NCBI RefSeq assembly: GCF_963921235.1 | Contig: NC_086108.1 | Location: 50,780,001-50,844,000, forward strand | Reading direction: 5' to 3' | Source of the DNA: Mobula hypostoma | Taxonomy: Eukaryota | Length of the DNA stretch: 64,000 bases | Shown here: piece after piece, positions 27,358 through 53,560 of the stretch | How positions within the stretch are numbered: position 1 is the stretch's first letter | Layout: each line of letters opens with the position of its first letter | Translations under genes and position numbers: made by a program | Notes under the pieces: model-generated | Seen by the model: only the letters and a program-made list of their open reading frames with translations | What the model was told of the DNA's origin: nothing | Database searches by the model: none

Positions 27358-30300
27358 TTCCTCAGAGACCTTGGCCTTCACCCTGCCTTGTGCAGCTGGA
27401 TGCTAGACTTCCTGTCAGATCGCCAGCAGGTGATAAGAGTGGGCTCCCTTCCCTCTGTCCGTCTGAACCTTAACACAGAAGCCCCCCAGGGATATGTCAT
27501 AAGCCCCCTCCTTTACTCTCTGTATACCCATGACTATGTCGCCACCCACAGCTCTAATCTGCTAATTAAATTTGCTGATGGTACTACATTGATTGGCTTT
27601 ATCTTAAATAATAATGAGGCAGCCTACAGAGAGGAGTCATCTCCCCGACATAGTGGTGTCAAGAAAACAACCTCTCACTCAACGTCGCAAAAACAAAGGA
27701 GCTGATTGTGGACTACAGGAGGAATGGAGACAGGCTAATCCCTACTGATATCAACGGATCTGGGGTTGAGAGGGTGAACAGCTTTAAATTCCTCGGCATA
27801 AACATCACTGAGGACCTCACGTGGTCTGTACGTACCGACTGTGTGGTGAAAAAGGCACAACAGCGCCTCTTTCACCTCAGACGATTGAAGAAGTTTGATA
27901 TGAGTTACCAAATCCTAAGGACTTTCTACAGGGGCACAATTGAGAGCATCTTGACTGGTTGGATTGCTGGCTGGTATGGGAACTGTACTTCCCTCGGTCG
28001 CAGGACTCTGCCGAGAGCAATGCGGACAGACCCAGCACATCTGTAGATGTGAACTTCCCACTATTCAGGACATTTGCAGAGACAGGTGTGTATAAAGGGC
28101 CCAAAGGATCATTGGGGACTCGGGTCACCCTGAACACAAACTGCTCCAGGTGCTACCATCTGGGAAACGGTATCACAGCATAAAAGCCAGGACCAACAGG
28201 CTCCAGGACAGCTTCTTCCACTAGGCCATCAGACTAATTAATTCATGCCAACACAATTGTACTTCTATGCTACATTGACTGTCCTGTTGTACATACTATT
28301 TATTACAAATTACTATAAATTTGTAAATTTAAAATATACTGGCACAGAGTCCGGCCCTGTGGCTCAGAAGGGTAGGGAAAGGAAGAGAAAGGCAGTAGTA
28401 ATAGGGGATTCTATAGCTAGGGGGTCAGCAGGTGATTCTGTGAATGCAGGAAAGAAACTCGGATGGTAGTTTGCCTCCAGGCTGCCAGGGTCCGGGATGT
28501 TTCAGATCGCGTCCAAGATATCCTGCAGTGGGAGGGAGAACAGCCAGAGATCGCAGTACATATTGGTACCAACGATATAGGTAGGAAAAGGGAAGACGTC
28601 CTGAAAATAGACTACAGGGAGTTAGGAAGGAAGTTGAGAAGCAGGACCACAAAGGTAGTAATCTCGGGATTACTGCCTGTGACACATGACAGTGAGTATA
28701 GAAATAGAGTGAGGTGGAGGATAAATGTGTGCTGAGGGATTGGAGCAGGGGGCAGGGATTCATATTTCTGGATCATTGGGACCTCTTTTTGGGCAGGTGT
28801 GACCTGTACAAAAAGGACAGGTTGCACTTGAATCCCAGGGGGACCAATATCCTGGTGGGGAGGTTTGCTAAGGCTACCGGGGAGAGTTTAAACTAGAATT
28901 GTTGGGGGGTGGGAACTGAACTGAAGAGGCTGGGCAAGAGGCTGTTGGCTCACAAATAGAGAAAGCTTGGAGACAGTGTGTGGGGGAGGATAGGTAGGTG
29001 ATAGAGAAGGATGCGCTCAAACCGACGATTTGAGATGTGTCTATTTTAACGCAAGGAGTATTGTGAACAAAGTGGATGAGCTTAGAGCGTGGATCAGTAC
29101 TTGCAGCTATGACATTGTGGCCATTATAGAGACTTGGATGGCTCAGGGACAGGAATGGTTACTTCAAGTGCTGGGTTTTAGATGTTTCAGAAAGGACAGG
29201 GAGGGAGGCAAAAGAGGTGGGGGCGTGGCACTGTTGATCAGAGATAGTGTCACGGCTGCAGAAAAGGTGGACATCATGGAGGGATTGTCTACCGAGTCTC
29301 TGTGGGTGGAGGTTAGGAACAGGAAGGGGTCAATAACTCTACTGGGTGTTTTTTATACCCTGCCCAATAGTAACAGGGATATCGAGGAGCAGACAGGGAA
29401 ACAGATCCTGGAAAGGTGTAATAATAACAGAGTTGTCATGATGGGAGATTTTAATTTCCAAAATATCGATTGGCAACTCCCTAGAGTGAGGGGTTTAGAT
29501 GGGGTAGAGTTTGTTAGGTGTAATCAGGAAGGTTACTTGACACAATATGCAGATAAGCCTACAAGAGGAGAGACTGTACTTGATTTGGTATTGGGAAATG
29601 AACCTGGTCAGGTTTCAGATCTCACAGTGGGAGAGCATTTTGGAGATAGTGATCATAGTTCTATCTCCTTTACAATAGCATTGGAGAGAGATAGGAACAG
29701 ACAAGTTAGAAAAGCGTTTAATTGGAGTAAGGGGAATTATGAGGCAATCAGGCAGGAACTTGGAAGCTTAAATTGGGAACAGATGTTCTCAGGGAAAGGT
29801 ACGGGAGAAATGTGGCAAATGTTCAGGGGATATTTGTGTGGGGTTCTGCATAAGTACCTTCCAATGAGACAAGGAAGTTATGGTAGGGTACAGGAACTGT
29901 GGTGTACAAAGGCTGTAGTAATTCTAGTCAAGAAGAAAAGAAAAGCTTACAAAAGGTTCAGAGAGCTAGGTCATTTTAGAAATCTAGAAGATTATAAGGC
30001 TAACAGGAAGGAACTTAAGAAGGAAATTAGGAGAGCCAGAAGGGGCCATGAGAAGGCCTTGGCGGGCAGGATTAAGGAAACCCCCAAGGCATTCTACAAG
30101 TATGTGAAGAGCAAGAGGATAAGACGTGAAAGAATAGGACCTATCAAGTGTGACAGTGGGAAAGTGTGTATGGAACCAGAGGAAATAGCAGAGGTACTTA
30201 ATGAGTACTTTACTTCAGTATTCACTATGGAAAAGGATCTTGGTAAGTGTAGTGATAATTTGCAGCGGACTGAAAAGCTTGAGCATGTATATAAGAGGAT

Positions 30301-38584: not shown

Positions 38585-39850
38585 TCAAATCGTCCACCAT
38601 TGTCTCTGTAGCTATGAAAACCAAGGTAGCATGCCTGAATGATTGGTGCCCTGTTGCTCTCACCTCAATTATAAGCAAATATTTTGAGAGGCTGGTTAAA
38701 TACTCCATCTGCAGCATGGACCCTCTACAATTTGTCTACCGACGGAACTGGTCTACCGATGACACACAGCCACAGCACTATACACTGTCCTCACCCACCT
38801 GGAGAAGAGGGATGCGTACATTAGAATGCTGTTCCTGGACTACAGTTCGGCATTCAACACCATAATTCCCTCCAGACTTGACAGGATGCTCAGCGACCTC
38901 GGCCTGCTCCTGTGCTCTGTGCGGCTGAATCCTAGACCTCCTGTTAGATCACTGACAGGTGGGAAGGATGGGCTGCCTCACCTCTGCCCCCTGACCCTCA
39001 ACACAGGTACCCCCCAGTGTTGTGTCCTGAGTCCCCCCCTCTTCACCCATGACTGTGCTGCCATACACAGCTCCAATCTGCTGTTCAAATTCGCAGATGA
39101 CACGACATTGATCGGCCTTATTTCTAATGGTGACGAGACAGCCTACAGAGGAGCAGTTAATAACCCGACATAGTGGTGCCAAGATAACAACCTCTCCTTC
39201 TAATTCCAAAAAAACAAAAGAGCTGATCCTGGATTACAGGAGGAACAGAGACAGGCTCACCCCAATCAACGTCAATAGGTCAGAATTTGAGAGGATGAGT
39301 AATTTCAAGTTCCTCAGTATACACATCACCGAAGATATTACCTGGCCTGTACACACCAGCTGTGTGGCAAAAAAAGCACAACAGCATCTCTTCCACCTCA
39401 GGCGACTGAAGAAGTTTGGTATGAACGCTCAAATCCTCAAGTCCTTCTACAGGGGCACCATTGAGAGCATCCTGACTGGCAGTAACACCGCCTGGTACAG
39501 AAACTGCACCAACCTTGATCGCTGGGCACTGCAGGGAGTGGTATGGACAGCCCAGCACATCTGTGGATGTGAACTTCCCTCCACTGAGGACATTTACAGC
39601 AGCAGGTGCAGAAAGAAGGCCTGGAAGATCATCAGGGACACCAGTCACCCCAACCATAAACTGTTTCAGCTGCTTCTGTCTGGCAAACAGTACTGCAGCC
39701 AGGACCAACAGGCTACAGGACAGTTTCTTTCTACAAGCCACTAGACGTTTAAATTCACACGTTTGTACATTGCGATGGAGTCATAACTCAAAGATTTTTC
39801 CCTCACGTTGTGGGATGGATGTAAAATATAAATAATTCAATTCAATCCAA
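38585..39850 (+). mobile_element. Rex1/Babar-like LINE (RT to 3' end)
   Basis: PVALTSIISKYFERLV, MLFLDYSSAFNTI, GTPQCCVLSP, FKFADDTT and KKAQQHLFHLRRLKKF, with an (AATTC)n tail. Confidence 0.88.
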
Positions 39851-40905: not shown

Positions 40906-41140
40906 TGCCCTTGCATTACTTGCTGCTGAGTTCTAGGGGCAGGTGGGCCAAACTACATCTTTATTACTTGGAGCATAAGAGAACAAGAGGAGATCTCATG
41001 CTTGTTCGTAATATCATGGAGTATGGATAAGGTCATAGCTTTTCCCCCCCGAGAGTTGGGGGAATTAGAGGGCGCAAATACAAGATAAGGGAAGAGAGAT
41101 TGAAAAGCTAGCTCAGAGGTAACGCAGTCCAGAGACCCGG

Positions 41141-41575
41141 ATGGTAGTTTGCCTCCCTGGTGCCAGGGTCCGGGATATTTCTGATCGTGTCCAAGATATC
41201 CTGAAGTGGAAGGATGAGGAGCCAGAGGTCATGGTACATATAGGTACCAATGACATAGGTAGGAAAAGGGATGAGGTCCTGAAAGGAGAATATAGGGAGC
41301 TAGGAAGGGAGTTGAGAAAAAGGACCGCAAAGGTAGTAATCTCGGGATTACTGCCTGTGCCACGCGACAGTGAGAGTAGGAATGCGATGAGGTGGAGGAT
41401 AAATGCGTGGCTGAGGGATTGGAGCAGGGGGCAGGGATTCAAGTTTTTGGATCATTGGGACCTCTTTTGGCGCAGGCGTGACCTGTACAAAAAGGATGGG
41501 TTACACTTGAATCCTAGGGGGACCAATATCCTGGCAGGGAGATTAGCGAGGGCTACTGAGGTGACTTTAAACTAG
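41141..41575 (+). CDS. CR1 ORF1 C-terminal SGNH/GDSL esterase domain (5'-truncated)
   Basis: CLPGARV, VHIGTNDIG and DGLHLN motifs; ends …TLN*. Confidence 0.85.
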   Translation: MVVCLPGARVRDISDRVQDILKWKDEEPEVMVHIGTNDIGRKRDEVLKGEYRELGRELRKRTAKVVISGLLPVPRDSESRNAMRWRINAWLRDWSRGQGFKFLDHWDLFWRRRDLYKKDGLHLNPRGTNILAGRLARATEVTLN

Positions 41576-41580
41576 AATGG

Positions 41581-44500
41581 TTGGGGGGTGGGAATCAAAT
41601 TAAAGAGGCTAGGCGTGAGGAGGTTAGTTCACAACAGGGGGGTGGGAACCAGTGCAGAGAGACAGAGGGGTGTAAAGTGAGGGTAGAAGCAAAAAGTACT
41701 AAGGAGAAAAGTAAAAATGGCAGGCCGACAAATCCAGGGCAAGCATTAAAAAGGACCACTTTACAACATAATTGTATAAGGGCTAAGAGAGTTGTAAAAG
41801 AGCGCCTGAAGGCTTTGTGTGTCAATGCAAGGAGCATTCGTAATAAGGTGGATGAATTGAAAGTGCAGATTATTATTAATGATTATGATATAGTTGGGAT
41901 CACAGAGACATGGCTCCAGGGTGACCAGGGATGGGAGCTCAACGTTCAGGGATATTCAATATTCAGGAGGGATAGACATGAAGGAAGGGGAGGTGGGGTG
42001 GCGTTGCTGGTTAAAGAAGAGATTAACGCAATAGAAAGGAAGGACATAAGCCGGGAAGATGTGGAATCGATATGGGTAGAGCTGCGTAACACTAAGGGGC
42101 AGAAGACGCTGGTGGGAGTTGTGTACAGGACACCTAACAGTAGTAGTGAGGTCGGAGATGGTATTAAACAGGAAATTAGAAATGTGTGCAATAAAGGAAC
42201 AGCAGTTATAATGGGTGACTTCAATCTACATGTAGATTGGGTGAACCAAATTGGTAAAGGTGCTGAGGAAGAGGATTTCTTGGAATGTATGCGGGATGGT
42301 TTTTTGAACCAACATGTCGAGGAACCAACTAGAGAGCAGGCTATTCTGGACTGGGTTTTGAGCAATGAGGAAGGGTTAATTAGCGATCTTGTCGTGAGAT
42401 GCCCCTTGGGTAAGAGTGACCATAATATGGTGGAATTCTTCATTAAGATGGAGAGTGACATAGTTAATTCAGAAACAAAGGTTCTGAACTTAAAGAGGGG
42501 TAACTTTGAAGGTATGAGATGTGAATTAGCTAAGATAGACTGGCAAATGACACTTAAAGGATTGACAGTGGATATGCAATGGCAAGCATTTAAAGGTTGC
42601 ATGGATGAACTACAACAATTGTTCATCCCAGTTTGGCAAAAGAATAAATCAAGGAAGGTAGTGCACCCGTGGCTGACAAGAGAAATTAGGGATAGTATCA
42701 ATTCCAAAGAAGAAGCATACAAATTAGCCAGAGAAAGTGGCTCACCTGAGGACTGGGAGAAATTCAGAGTTCAGCAGAGGAGGACAAAGGGCTTAATTAG
42801 GAAGGGGGAAAAAGATTATGAGAGAAAACTGGCAGGGAACATAAAAACGGACTGTAAAAGCTTTTATAGATATGTAAAAAGGAAAAGACTGGTAAAGACA
42901 AATGTAGGTCCCCTGCAAACAGAAACAGGTGAATTGATTATGGGGAGCAAGGACATGGCAGACCAGTTGAATAATTACTTTGGTTCTGTCTTCACTAAGG
43001 AGGACATAAATAATCTTCCAGAAATAGTAGGGGACAGAGGGTCCAGTGAGATGGAGGAACTGAGCGAAATACATGTTAGTAGGGAAGTGGTGTTAGGTAA
43101 ATTGAAGGGATTGAAGGCAGATAAATCCCCAGGGCCAGATGGTCTGCATCCTAGAGTGCTTAAGGAAGTAGCCCAAGAAATAGTGGATGCATTAGTGATA
43201 ATTTTTCAAAACTCGTTAGATTCTGGACTAGTTCCTGAGGATTGGAGGGTGGCTAATGTAACTCCACTTTTTAAAAAAGGAGGGAGAGAGAAACCGGGGA
43301 ATTATAGACCGGTTAGCCTAACATCGGTGGTGGGGAAGCTGCTGGAGTCAGTTATCAAGTATGTGATAACAGCACATTTGGAAAGCGGTGAAATGATCGG
43401 ACAAAGTCAGCATGAATTTGTGAAAGGAAAATCGTGTCTGACGAATCTCACAGAATTTTTTGAGGGTGTAACTAGTAGAGTGGATAGGGGAGAACCAGTG
43501 GATGTGGTATATTTGGATTTTCAAAAGGCTTTTGACAAGGTCCCACACAGGAGATTAGTGTGCAAACTTAAAGCACACAGTATTGGGGGTAAGGTATTGG
43601 TGTGTGTGGAGAATTGGTTAGCAGACAGGAATCAAAGAGTGGGAATAAACGGGACCTTTTCAGAATGGCAGGCGGTGACTAGTGGGGTACCACAAGGCTC
43701 AGTGCTGGGACCCCAGTTGTTTACAATATATATTAATGACTTGGATGAGGGAATTAAATGCAGCATCTCCAAGTTTGTGGATGACACGAAGCTGGGTGGC
43801 AGTGTTAGATGTGAGGAGGATGCTAAGAGGATGCAGGGTGACTTGGATAGGTTGGGTGAGTGGGCAAATTCATGGCAGATGCAATTTAATGTGGATAAAT
43901 GTGAAATTATCCACTTTGGTGGCAAAAATAGGAAAACAGATTATTATCTGAATGGTGGCCGATTAGGAAAAGGGGAGGTGCAACGAGACCTGGGTGTCAT
44001 TATACACCAGTCATTGAAAGTGGGCATGCAGGTACAGCAGGCGGTGAAAAAGACGAATGGTATGCTGGCATTTATAGCGAGAGGATTCGAGTACAGGAGC
44101 AGGGAGGTACTACTGCAGTTGTACAAGGCCTTGGTGAGACCACACCTGGAGTATTGGGTGCAGTTTTGGTCCCCTAATCTGAGGAAAGACATCCTTGCCT
44201 TAGAGGGAGTACAAAGAAGGTTCACCAGATTGATTCCTGGGATGGCAGGACTTTCATATGAAGAAAGACTGGATGAACTGGGCTTGTACTCATTGGAATT
44301 TAGAAGATTGAGGGGGGATCTGATTGAAACGTATAAGATCCTAAAGGGATTGGACAGGCTAGATGCAGGAAGATTGTTCCCGGTGTTGGGGAAGTCCAGA
44401 ACGAGGGGCCACAGTTTGAGGATAGAGGGGAAGCCTTTTAGGACCGAGATGAGGAAAAACTTCTTCACACAGAGAGTGGTGAATCTGTGGAATTCTCTGC

Positions 44501-44613
44501 CACAGGAAACAGTTGAGGCCAGTTCATTGGCTATATTTAAGAGGGAGTTAGATATGGCCCTTGTGGCTACGGGGGTCAGGGGGTATGGAGGGAAGGCTGG
44601 GGCGGGGTTCTGA
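41581..44613 (+). CDS. CR1 ORF2: APE endonuclease plus reverse transcriptase, uninterrupted, no upstream AUG
   Basis: Endonuclease motifs NARS, ETW, YRTP, GDFN and SDH; RT motifs [32 protein letters not shown] and KFVDD; CR1 C-terminus. The listed start is TTG and the frame is open from 41560. Confidence 0.92.
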   Translation: MGGGNQIKEARREEVSSQQGGGNQCRETEGCKVRVEAKSTKEKSKNGRPTNPGQALKRTTLQHNCIRAKRVVKERLKALCVNARSIRNKVDELKVQIIINDYDIVGITETWLQGDQGWELNVQGYSIFRRDRHEGRGGGVALLVKEEINAIERKDISREDVESIWVELRNTKGQKTLVGVVYRTPNSSSEVGDGIKQEIRNVCNKGTAVIMGDFNLHVDWVNQIGKGAEEEDFLECMRDGFLNQHVEEPTREQAILDWVLSNEEGLISDLVVRCPLGKSDHNMVEFFIKMESDIVNSETKVLNLKRGNFEGMRCELAKIDWQMTLKGLTVDMQWQAFKGCMDELQQLFIPVWQKNKSRKVVHPWLTREIRDSINSKEEAYKLARESGSPEDWEKFRVQQRRTKGLIRKGEKDYERKLAGNIKTDCKSFYRYVKRKRLVKTNVGPLQTETGELIMGSKDMADQLNNYFGSVFTKEDINNLPEIVGDRGSSEMEELSEIHVSREVVLGKLKGLKADKSPGPDGLHPRVLKEVAQEIVDALVIIFQNSLDSGLVPEDWRVANVTPLFKKGGREKPGNYRPVSLTSVVGKLLESVIKYVITAHLESGEMIGQSQHEFVKGKSCLTNLTEFFEGVTSRVDRGEPVDVVYLDFQKAFDKVPHRRLVCKLKAHSIGGKVLVCVENWLADRNQRVGINGTFSEWQAVTSGVPQGSVLGPQLFTIYINDLDEGIKCSISKFVDDTKLGGSVRCEEDAKRMQGDLDRLGEWANSWQMQFNVDKCEIIHFGGKNRKTDYYLNGGRLGKGEVQRDLGVIIHQSLKVGMQVQQAVKKTNGMLAFIARGFEYRSREVLLQLYKALVRPHLEYWVQFWSPNLRKDILALEGVQRRFTRLIPGMAGLSYEERLDELGLYSLEFRRLRGDLIETYKILKGLDRLDAGRLFPVLGKSRTRGHSLRIEGKPFRTEMRKNFFTQRVVNLWNSLPQETVEASSLAIFKRELDMALVATGVRGYGGKAGAGF

Positions 44614-46240
44614 GTTGGATGATCAGCCATGATCATAAAAAATGGTGGTGCAGGCTCGAAGGGCCGAATGGCCTACTCCTGCACCTATTTTCTATGTTTC
44701 TATGTTTCTTGACACAGAGGGTGATGAGTACCTGGAATCTGCTGCTAGACGATGTGGTTGAATTCCAACATTCAAGAGGCATTTTTATAGGTACATGGAG
44801 AGAAAAGGCTTGTAGGGTTATGGGCTAATTGTGGACAACTGGGAGGAGCAGGGAGGATGATGTGGTCAGTTGGGGCCAGTTGGGCTTAAGGGTCTATGTT
44901 CTATTACTCTATGACTATGACTCATCTGTCACTTATCCATTTCAGTGTACAGGTGAAGAAGTCAGAGACAAGTCAACTCTACAGAGGCCATGATCATTGG
45001 TTCTCTGAAGATGTCCTGGCCAGGAGACAAATGCGTTAATACTGTGATTGGCAGTTCCATTCTGTCATACTCCATTACCAAACTTGATATGTTATTTATA
45101 ATTTAATTAATGTCATATACACTCAGTGATCCAATTTACAACTTTAATTTGATAATGATCACTTTCCTCCACTCTTAAAAAACAATTCTCTTGCACGACA
45201 ATCGTCCTCACTCACAACCATGTACAGGATTCCAGACTCAGCCTAACAGAGATTTTGTACAGTTGCAACATGACATCTCAACTCCATGTCTTGGCTGACA
45301 AGACAAGCGTGCCAACTGCCTTATTTACATGGATTGCCATTCCCAGGAAGTTATGAACTTGCCCCCAGTGTCTTCTGTAAATCTCCTGATATCCCTACTA
45401 TTTTCTCTATATGTTTGGTTAGTCCCAAAATGCCTTAACTCACGCTTTGCTGGATTACATTCCACCTGTCATACAGCTTGCTCTGCCCAACTTTTTGATC
45501 CAAGCTCATCTGTCTCCTTTAACAACTTCTTGTAAGACCATAAGATATACGAACAGGACTAGGCCATTTGACTCATCAAGTCTGCTCTGCCATTTCACCA
45601 TGGATGATCCAATTTTCCTCTCAACCCCAATCTCCTGCCTTCTCCCCATATCCCTTCATTCCCTGACTAATCAAGAACCTATCAACCTCTACCCTAAATA
45701 TACATAAAACATGGCTTCCACAGCTATTTGTGGCAAATAATTCCACAATTCACCATTGGCTGGTTAAAGAAATTCCTCCTCATCTCCATTCTAAAAGGAC
45801 ACCTCTCTATTCTGAGGCTGTGTCCTCTGGTCTTAGACCCCCCCCCCCCCCCACCATAGGAAACATCTTCTCCACGTCCACTTTATTGAGCCCTTTCACC
45901 ATTCAATAGGTTTCATTCTTCTAAATTCAAATGAATATACCCACAGAGCCATCAAACGCTCTTCATCTGACAAGCCATTCAATCCTGGAATGATTTTCAT
46001 GAACCTCCTTTGAATCTCCTCCTGTTTCAGCACAACCTTTCTAAGACAAGGGGTCCAAAATTGCTCACAACACTCCATGAAGTCTCACCAGTGCTTCATA
46101 AATTCTTAACATTATACCCTTGCTTTTACATTCTAGTCCTCTTGAAACAGCTGCTAACATTGCACTTACCTTCCTCACCACAGACTCTACCTGCAAATTA
46201 ACCTTTAGGGAATCCTCCATAAGGACTCTTAAGTCCCTTT

Positions 46241-51229: not shown

Positions 51230-53560
51230 AATAAGACGAAAGGATATAGGAGCAGAATTAGGCCATTTGAGTTCGATCCACCATTTCATCATGGCTGATC
51301 CCAGATACCATACAACCCCATATCTCTTGCTCCCCTGACCAATCAGGAATTTATCAACTTCTGCTTTGAATATACCCATAACTTGGCCTCCACCGCAGTC
51401 TGTGTTAGAACATTCCACAGATTCACCATTCTTTTGCTAAAAAAATTCCTCCTTACCTCTGTTATAAAAGATCACCCCTCAATTTTGAGGCTGTGCCACT
51501 AGTTCTGGATACCTCCACCAGAGGAAACATCCTCTCCACATCCACCTTATCTAGTCCTTTCAACATTCAGTAGCTTTCAATGAGATCACCATGCATTCTT
51601 CTAAATTCCAGTGAGTACAGGCCCAAAGCAGCCAAACGATCCTCACATGTTAACCCCTTAATTTCCGGAATCATCCTCATGAATCTCCTCTGGACTCCCT
51701 CCAATGTCAACACATCCTTTCTGAGATATGGGGCCCAAAACTGTTGACAATGCTACAAGTGTGGCCTGATTAGTGTTTTATAAAGGCTCAGCATTAGCTT
51801 CTTGCTTTTATATTTTATTCCCCTTGAAATAAATATCAACATTGAATTTGCCTTCTTTACCACAGACTCAACCTATGAATTAACTTTCTGGGAGTCTTGC
51901 ACGAGGACACCCAAGTCCCTGGGCATCTCTGATGTTTGAACCTTCCCCCCCATTTAGATAATAGTCCACACTATTGTTCCTTTTACTAAAATGCATTATC
52001 GTACATTTCCCAACACTATATTCCATCTGCCACTTTTTTGCACATTCTTCCAATTTGTCTAAGTCCTGTTGCTTCCTCAGCACTACCTACCCCTGCACCT
52101 ATCTTTGTATCATCCACAAACTTTGTCACAAAGCCATCAATGTCACTATCCAAATCACTGACAAACAATATGAAGAGTTGCGGTCCAATACGGCAACTCT
52201 CGAGGATTCTCACGGAACACTGAATACCACTAGTCACTGGCAGCTAACCAGAAAAGGCCCCCTTTATTCCCACTCACTGCCTCTTGCCTGTCAGCCAATC
52301 CTTTATCCATGCCAGTATACTTCCTATAACACCATAGGATTTTATCTTGTTAAGCAGCCTAACTCCCTATATTCTGTTTTCAGGACCTCCTCACTTTTTC
52401 TACCTAACAACAGCCTTTCTTCACTACACTTTACCTCTGATTGTAAACCAGCTACCTCATCTTCGGCACTATTATCTGCTCTTCCTACAATACTTGCATT
52501 GAAATATATGCAGCTCAGGACACTAGTTGCACCATGCTCAACCTTTTGATTCCTAACTTTGTCTGAGGTCTTACCAACATCTGCCTTCACAACCTCTCCA
52601 ATAATTGTTCTGGCACTCTGGTTCCCATTCCCCTGCTACTCTAGTTTAAACCCCACCACGCAGCATTAACAAATCTTTATTAGTTCCCCTTCAGTTCATG
52701 TGCAAGCTGTCTCTTCTGTACAGGTCCCACCCTCCCTGGAAGAGAGCCAAATGATCCAAAAATCTCAAGCACAAGGAAATCTGCAGATGCTGGAAGTTCA
52801 AGCAACACACATAAAAATTGCCAGTGAACGCGGCTGATAGATGCTGCCTGGCCTGCTTCATTCACCAGCAATTTTTATGTGTGTTGATCCAAAAATCTGA
52901 CGCCTTCCCTCCTACACCAACTCCTTAGTCATGTATTAAACTGTATAATCTTCCTAGTTCTGGCCTCACTAGCACGAGGCATGGGTAGCAATCCTGATAT
53001 CACTACCCTGGAGGTCCTGCATTTTAACTTAGCACCTAACTCCCTGAACCACCTATGCAGAACCTCATCCTACCCATGCCATTGGTACCTACATGGACCA
53101 TGACTTCTGGCTGTTCACCCTCCCACTTAAGAATGCTGAGGATTCAATCTGAGATATCCCAGAACCTGGCACCCAAGAGGCAACATACCATCTGGGAATC
53201 TAGTTCTCGCCCACAGAACCTCCTGTCCCTAACTAACGAATCCCCTTTCACCACAGCGTGCTTCTTCTCTCCCCTTCCCTTTGAGTCACAGAGGCAGACT
53301 GAGTGCCAGAGACCTGACCACTGTTAGGGTCATCCCCCCACCCCCGACAGTATTCAAAGTGATATACCTGTTATTGAGGGGGATGGCCACAGGGGTATTC
53401 TGTACTGGCTCCTTATCCCCTTTCCCCTTCCTGGTTTCCTAGTTTCCTGCATCCTGCACCTTGGGTGTAAGCACCTCTCTATATGTCCAATCTATCACCC
53501 CTTCAGCTTCCCGAATGATCCAGCATTCATCCAGTTCCAGCTCTAACACCTTGACACGGT
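51230..53560 (-). mobile_element. Rearranged CR1 (3' end and RT at 51230-52360; ORF1 and ORF1/ORF2 junction at 52360-53560)
   Basis: KFVDDTKI and LSCIYFNASIVGRAD (endonuclease start). ORF1 esterase-like sequence (HVGTNG, VISGLLP), with the junction TTTAAACTAG at 52650-52641. Confidence 0.75.
52766..52884. mobile_element. 119-bp palindromic Penelope terminal-repeat insertion with 14-bp TSD
   Basis: TGATCCAAAAATCT at 52752-52765 and 52885-52898. Internal inverted repeat CAACACACATAAAAATTGC / GCAATTTTTATGTGTGTTG. Confidence 0.8.

Follow-up and report, generated by a model that had tools for sequence, protein, structure and literature searches.

A conserved slippery heptamer at the ORF1–ORF2 junction of CR1 retrotransposons is best read as a −1 ribosomal frameshift site

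A CR1-type long interspersed nuclear element (LINE) in a 64,000-nucleotide stretch of the Mobula hypostoma genome (NC_086108.1, positions 50,780,001 to 50,844,000; hereafter the window) carries the heptamer T_TTA_AAC directly before the stop codon of its first open reading frame (ORF1), with the second (ORF2) lying in the −1 frame. The site is conserved across jawed vertebrates, and from sequence comparison it is best read as an apparently structure-free, non-canonical −1 frameshift site in a LINE. We consider it quite probable that −1 ribosomal frameshifting at this site yields a fusion of the CR1 ORF1 protein (ORF1p), an esterase, with the endonuclease (EN) and reverse transcriptase (RT) of ORF2; we infer the slip, the fusion and its stimulator from the copies compared below. 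A −1 shift has been stated before for Dictyostelium LINEs, and the heptamer itself is known from viruses. The features of the studied copy, and of two related junctions, are given below in window coordinates.

41122..44709, + strand: the CR1-type LINE copy studied (domains, ORFs and blastn to sister copies)
41122..41575, + strand: ORF1, 5′-truncated, the C-terminal part of an SGNH/GDSL esterase, ending ...EVTLN before the stop (ORF list; Pfam PF13472, E 5e-16; 5′ boundary by blastn against sister copies)
41566..41572, + strand: slippery heptamer T_TTA_AAC in X_XXY_YYZ phase (sequence; kept across lineages)
41573..41575, + strand: ORF1 stop TAG abutting the heptamer, TAA in some lineages (sequence)
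41577..41603, + strand: lineage-specific ATG with an 8-codon ORF in the +1 frame, out of the ORF2 frame (sequence)
41583..41595, + strand: G-rich motif starting 10 nt past the heptamer (equal offset in ray and bird-type copies)
41560..44613, + strand: ORF2, −1 frame, 1017 codons, stop-free, with a 16-nt overlap with ORF1 (ORF list; Pfam)
41572..41829, + strand: charged linker without stop or Met, lying between the shift site and the initial endonuclease motif (264 nt separate the first T and the Asn of NARS)
41857..42423, + strand: APE-type endonuclease domain (Pfam PF03372), with the first in-frame ATG, 42211–42213, inside it
43282..43935, + strand: reverse transcriptase domain, FVDD in the window copy (Pfam PF00078)
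44614..44709, + strand: 3′ untranslated region (UTR) ending in TTTCTATG repeats, no poly(A) (sequence)
28887..28896, + strand: ORF1 end of a second CR1 lineage, heptamer and TAG, decayed copy (exact match)
52641..52650, − strand: ORF1 end of a third CR1 lineage, heptamer and TAG, decayed copy (exact match)

ORF1 of the window copy ends in the codons ACT TTA AAC TAG (41564–41575), bearing out the first-pass annotation of this DNA, which had placed an in-phase TTTAAAC immediately before the ORF1 stop. Its assignment of ORF2 to the −1 frame also holds, that frame being closed by TGA at 41557–41559, two codons upstream of the heptamer, and open over 41560–44613. Pfam matches the ORF2 product to an endonuclease at residues 100–288 (PF03372, with PF14529 also matched) and to a reverse transcriptase at residues 575–792 (PF00078). 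The first Met does lie inside the endonuclease, at residue 218 counted from 41560 rather than at the residue of about 213 first given. The ATG at 41577–41579, one base past the ORF1 stop, is missing from the other lineages in the window. An SGNH esterase in ORF1, APE and RT domains in ORF2, and short 3′ tandem repeats without poly(A) are the marks of vertebrate CR1, and this copy is assigned to CR1 by its domains and 3′ end; CR1 3′ ends follow an octamer repeat rule. Full-length sister copies have an N-terminal CxxC..CxxC motif in ORF1. Because the ORF1 start is absent and the RT motif reads FVDD (FADD in 6/7 and FPDD in 1/7 of the other copies checked), the window copy is probably inactive.

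The window contains three exact matches to TTTAAACTAG, each at the ORF1 end of a different CR1 lineage, and canonical heptamers occur in phase at 0 of 1014 positions within the window ORF2 (a count over one ORF2); TTTAAAC at the ORF1 end is therefore more than chance. An upstream esterase motif gave 10,229 matches in genome G000. The first 30 esterase-motif loci were chosen blind to the junction, and the exact heptamer was found in 26/30, at the fixed offset in 21/30; among 40 further loci chosen for unusual anchors, 39 could be scored and 21 had the heptamer at the fixed offset. Clustering of 220 junctions resulted in eight multi-copy lineages with a usable junction, to which a ninth ray lineage was later added. 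All nine carry T_TTA_AAC followed by TAG or TAA (TAA in lineages D, G and F4), with the exact heptamer in 57/60, 29/33, 19/23, 20/20, 12/19, 11/11, 4/5, 2/2 and 20/25 copies, lineages A–D and G having been fetched partly by DNA queries containing the heptamer. Outside the rays, 32 metagenome loci included seven with an ORF1 end of bird type, whose nearest named relatives are bird proteins (about 30–36% ORF1 identity to the ray protein), and all seven read T TTA AAC TAG. An eighth bird-type locus, L238, has a deletion just upstream, and its heptamer is followed by AAG; several of the 32 are cut by a contig end, and L230, L237, L239, L241 and L242 are distant esterases without this junction.

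The Leu of the heptamer is written TTA and the Asn AAC, while control invariant Leu and Asn codons 20–26 codons upstream split among synonyms: control Leu codons vary between TTG, TTA, CTG and CTT (for example TTG 0.51/CTG 0.49), and control Asn codons between AAC and AAT (for example 0.62/0.38). The codon supplying the first T is GGT, GCT, AGT, ACT, GAT, TGT or TCT (Gly, Ala, Ser, Thr, Asp, Cys). The codon tally covered 210 filtered copies in 48 clusters, with a filter that favours the heptamer and so raises the conservation values; junctions outside offset 19–29 or with more than two mismatches were excluded, as were the misplaced or interrupted loci L150, L161, L198 and L199. Internal xLN codings are written TTTAAAC in 1/11 cases. 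Free synonymous variation in the heptamer, named in advance as a finding that would speak against frameshifting, is absent, its synonymous sites being invariant where the control codons vary. Judged by codon usage, the heptamer is conserved at the nucleotide level beyond what the protein needs.

These codons, together with the reading phase described below, largely refute the idea that the motif has no part in translation and represents an xLN protein end, a 3′ splice acceptor (TAG), a TATA-like promoter, a site of transcriptional slippage or an endonuclease-cut recombination point, and we regard all of these as very improbable. TTTAAA does resemble a TATA box and an L1-type cut site, CTAG is acceptor-like, and chimeric elements exist (L130, lineage C). 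Protein constraint, however, can dictate neither synonymous codon choice nor the wobble T; a splice acceptor would find no AG in lineages D, G and F4, whose stop is TAA; and in five lineages shortening the mRNA would not supply an AUG. The site's three T and three A fall short of the runs of 9 cited for transcriptional slippage (PMC5009743), and none of the non-translational readings predicts the −1 phase. Splicing at the junction was looked for in contigs of X1, X5, X9 and X18 (other organisms, their RNA status a guess), where four joints were found, none ending at the stop, although contigs cannot show absence; among the differences listed for these contigs there were no heptamer indels.

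The same constraint is visible in the ORF1 proteins. Of 175 examined, 129 reach the last helix and 119 end there, 114/119 with xLN. The residue before LN is one without a T-ending codon (E, Q, K, M or W) in 3/114, compared with 33/114 and 36/114 one and two places earlier; in a further set of 140 proteins chosen as representatives at 50% identity, 74 stop at that helix and 46 have LN as their end, with such residues in 0/46 against 15/46 and 18/46, although many of the proteins are related and these counts overstate independence. Named ORF1 relatives include proteins of rays, sharks, frogs, turtles, birds, lizards and an eel; the protein relatives of the window copy that bear names belong to rays and sharks, which points to a cartilaginous fish as host. 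Two CR1-type ORF1s are labelled Pseudomonas aeruginosa (P0019) and Protopolystoma xenopodis (P0064), likely reflecting host contamination. Four proteins (P0037, P0341, P0106 and P0212) extend past the esterase into linker sequence of the ORF2 frame and appear to be single copies carrying an indel close to the junction.

In the ray lineages, the heptamer's first T and the Asn of the first endonuclease motif are 264 (in one subfamily 237), 168, 345, 222, 207, 156, 153, 153 and 210 nt apart; in bird-type loci they are 165, 123 (at three loci) and 270 nt apart. The phase of ORF1 and ORF2, which the first-pass annotation expected to vary if its reading were wrong, is constant: all twelve distinct distances (123, 153, 156, 165, 168, 207, 210, 222, 237, 264, 270 and 345) are multiples of three, with a probability of about 6e-6 if they are independent. 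An apparently out-of-phase lineage at 217 nt (L147, L179, L189) was resolved to 210 nt in 13/25 further copies. Majority stops in the linker number 0 in the −1 frame of 9/9 lineages and 3–13 in 17/18 lineage-frames of the other frames. Upstream of the heptamer, the −1 frame closes within 1–5 codons in all ten ray clusters tallied and in 5/7 bird-type loci, with no shared upstream ATG, and a majority ATG ahead of the endonuclease is missing from 5/9 ray lineages. Because the heptamer is fixed and in phase, the phase is fixed at −1, the linker is open and no start is shared, −1 frameshifting is the simplest account. Conservation, phase, open linker and start-codon tests thus support the esterase–EN–RT fusion first proposed for this copy, which would itself be the product of such a shift.

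Several observations weigh against this account. The lineages are related, and the counts obtained from them are not independent. Old single-copy ray junctions are in phase copy by copy in 9/21 cases, a figure expected from decay and no support for the shift, and two old lineages reach a multiple-of-three distance only via alignment occupancy. Three ORF1 proteins (P0036, P0149, P0157) end in ELN, which is incompatible with the first T, G_UUA being a variant used in equine arteritis virus (PMC5009743). A family with ORF1 and ORF2 fused in frame was not found, the four longer matches from this weak search being gene-model chimeras. No conserved 3′ structure was detected in 16 copies folded at 70 and 120 nt with shuffles, nor any specific long-range partner in ORF2 or the 3′ UTR of the kind known from barley yellow dwarf virus (BYDV). 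Possible start codons do occur: in four ray lineages, a majority linker ATG (codon 39, 39, 60 or 75) preceded by open frame; an in-frame ATG at codon 5, 2 nt past the stop, in 4/7 bird-type loci (TCG, GTG or TGG in the others); an in-frame ATG in a few ray copies, at codon 5 in L136 and L148 and codon 6 in L145; and, in four ray lineages, TTG or ACG at codon 5–6. The earlier expectation that no conserved in-frame AUG would precede the endonuclease therefore stands for CR1 in general, and fails for the four ray lineages and four bird-type loci just named.

Such starts would suit termination and reinitiation, in which ribosomes stop at the ORF1 end and restart a few bases on at an AUG or near-cognate codon, making a separate ORF2 protein (ORF2p) as in SART1 or L1. 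In its favour are the bird-type ATG and the TTG, GTG or ACG codons of several lineages at codon 5–6, as well as a linker open from the junction, which it needs; L1 ORF2 translation is also AUG-independent, as Alisch is said to have reported in 2006. The SART1 stop-start junction provides a precedent (PMC3708506, PMC3894237). Reinitiation nevertheless leaves the synonymous fixation of seven bases before the stop unexplained, and it needs no fixed phase, yet 12/12 distances fit −1. At codon 5, lineages A, D and G have TGG and F4 has AGT (TTG, TGG, ACG or AGT across the rays), D and G have no majority CTG, GTG, TTG or ACG in codons 4–16, and a SART1-type AUG at or beside the ORF1 stop and in frame with ORF2 is the majority in 0/9 ray lineages and occurs in 4/7 bird-type loci. 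We consider reinitiation as the sole route improbable. A combination of both routes, which overlaps with the frameshift account, is less improbable but still unlikely: frameshifting would be the ancestral route, joined by reinitiation and a free ORF2p wherever a lineage acquired an AUG close to the stop (the bird clade) or in the linker. The full heptamer is retained in 4/4 bird-type copies with the codon-5 ATG, and the linker ATGs of the four ray lineages are of the kind expected; on the other side, Met is possibly just one of several tolerated hydrophobic residues (L, W, M, V) at that linker position, and the ATG is not common to all bird-type copies.

Under −1 frameshifting, ribosomes would finish most ORF1 translation at the stop, while a fraction would slip back one base on U_UUA_AAC into ORF2, tRNA-Leu moving from UUA to UUU and tRNA-Asn from AAC to AAA, with CUA as the next codon. 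The product would be an ORF1p–linker–endonuclease–RT fusion beside a large excess of ORF1p, with a predicted length of 311 + 1013 = 1324 residues (full-length ORF1 from L034 and the window ORF2). On mammalian ribosomes, U_UUA_AAC ranks with the heptamers most prone to shifting, and a −1 shift can depend on a stop close by (PMC5009743). The pause would most likely come from the adjacent stop codon, to which it is mainly assigned because no conserved RNA structure lies downstream, perhaps aided by the G-rich motif 10 nt downstream.

Folding z-scores for the 16 copies at both lengths ranged from −2.4 to +1.7 and were mostly near or above zero. No conserved stem-loop or pseudoknot was found 5–9 nt downstream, in a region with only 4–23% C and with pseudoknots not directly modelled; predictions of two-tier G-quadruplexes were limited to a subset of copies and differed in place. 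Long-range duplexes had mean energies of −20.1 kcal/mol for cognate and −19.7 kcal/mol for non-cognate pairs, and shuffled motifs picked the same bin (−16.6 to −18.5 versus the observed −18.8). A recurring long-range match at the FWSP codons was set aside, being one of the few C-rich spots and lacking specificity. The description of the site as canonical, used in the first-pass annotation, thus fits the heptamer but not the 3′ stimulatory structure, which was not found. The G-rich motif may be an RNA signal or may encode a conserved Gly-x-Gly-Asn/Asp peptide; the two are not separated because GGG is a common Gly codon at control positions too. It is present twice in lineage A (41583–41595 and 41640–41652, 57 nt apart), which suggests an old linker duplication.

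In Rous sarcoma virus and BYDV the stop directly follows the heptamer, and the motif of porcine reproductive and respiratory syndrome virus (PRRSV) has a spacing of about 10 nt. The CR1 junction resembles viral −1 frameshift sites (infectious bronchitis coronavirus with U_UUA_AAC, retroviral gag-pol, and an umbravirus with a required nearby stop; PMC5009743) in heptamer, phase, short overlap, structural protein–polymerase fusion and adjacent stop; it differs in that neither a pseudoknot or stem-loop nor long-range pairing could be found in CR1 and no protease domain was detected that could cut the fusion. It shares with PRRSV, whose site works with nsp1-beta and poly(C)-binding protein (PMC5009743), a short unstructured downstream motif in place of a structure, whereas the CR1 motif is G-rich and possibly only a conserved peptide. 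SART1, with its UAAUG coupling, and L1, with termination-reinitiation, are likewise bicistronic LINE RNAs with low ORF2 output, and some CR1 copies have an AUG 2 nt past the stop; unlike them, CR1 has no shared AUG, a conserved slippery heptamer and an ORF overlap in one fixed phase.

Among LINEs, the Dictyostelium elements TRE5-A and TRE3-A are stated to need a −1 frameshift for ORF2 (PMC5911963), so the earlier view that characterised LINE mechanisms are limited to reinitiation and coupling was too narrow. These are also APE-type non-LTR (long terminal repeat) elements, from another clade and host, and the part of that source consulted mentions no esterase ORF1. For Paramecium LINEs, +1 shifting, reinitiation or readthrough has been proposed (PMC5405496), and reviews call LINE ORF2 translation an open question (PMC3708506, PMC3894237). 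HeT-A gag is mentioned in PMC5009743, in the first 300,000 characters of which 'CR1' occurs 0 times. Canonical vertebrate CR1 (subgroup 7, with an ORF1 of type IVB, PMC4120745; PMC13343379; chicken, PMC2734521) shares with the copies studied an esterase ORF1, an ORF2 with APE and RT, and short 3′ repeats without poly(A), the last a trait of CR1 elements other than Zenon (PMC13343379). CR1 has been described as two separate ORFs and proteins, of about 36 and 95 kDa in chicken (PMC2734521). A term search found neither 'frameshift' nor 'overlap' in the text covered of PMC13343379 and PMC4316615, and frame-shift in that of PMC2734521 refers to mutations only. No report of −1 frameshifting for CR1 was found in the literature searched, although an earlier remark in the original CR1 descriptions or in Repbase notes is possible.

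CR1 has been called the dominant retrotransposon group of most vertebrates (PMC13343379). If the frameshift account is correct, its enzyme would be a fusion with ORF1p rather than free ORF2p, the esterase riding on the RT, and a seven-base site would set the ratio of ORF1p to enzyme. ORF2 annotations that start at the first Met would cut the endonuclease. The junction would also provide a natural vertebrate −1 shift site seemingly working without 3′ structure.

A wider version of this account is tentative, and we think it rather less likely than not to hold in full: the RT of CR1, as the dominant retrotransposon of non-mammalian jawed vertebrates, would have been made as a Gag-Pol-like ORF1p–EN–RT fusion since before the split of sharks and birds, via a structure-free −1 shift that depends on the stop beside the heptamer and on a G-rich element 10 nt downstream acting as a protein-binding site or quadruplex, with the esterase and slippery site moving as a cassette among CR1, Penelope-like and distant LINEs and with other heptamers in distant lineages. 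At protein level, eight distant esterase ORF1s end in QGN or SGN and one in SKN; FF or FL occurs close to the C-terminus in several. The QGN/SGN and SKN ends fit G_GGA_AAC and A_AAA_AAC, and the FF/FL ends fit other slippery heptamers. No DNA encoding the proteins with QGN, SKN or FF ends was found among viral contigs, and GTDB matches were dropped as bacterial esterases (24–30% identity). The distant esterase ORF1s ending in QGN, SGN, SKN or FFx are P0235, P0236, P0237, P0241, P0244, P0249, P0269, P0292, P0246, P0238, P0297 and P0300. One decayed copy, which by motif we take to be a Penelope-like element, has an esterase (weak match, E 0.19) ending T TTA ACC TAG at L274:3972–3981 (G000:C50:463000–472000). 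RT-like sequence follows in its −1 frame, with one heptamer mismatch and no G-rich motif after it, and this esterase–slippery-site junction is a lead only.

Two mosaic arrangements were observed at CR1 junctions. Lineage C (window 52400–52650, − strand; L082–L100) has a duplicated endonuclease start, with a first YFNA.S about 150 nt past the heptamer, then a linker from another lineage and, at 345 nt, the second start; the −1 frame is intact throughout. Locus L130 is an apparent recombinant that combines a lineage A junction with the linker and endonuclease start of another lineage, still at −1 (246 nt). In the window itself, the flanks of the studied copy (41050–41121 and 44710–44800) appear by eye to derive from an older CR1 3′ fragment that the insertion split in two. 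Two overlapping ORFs at 38763–39744 (+ strand) resemble a decayed RT C-terminal part, presumably from another LINE type.

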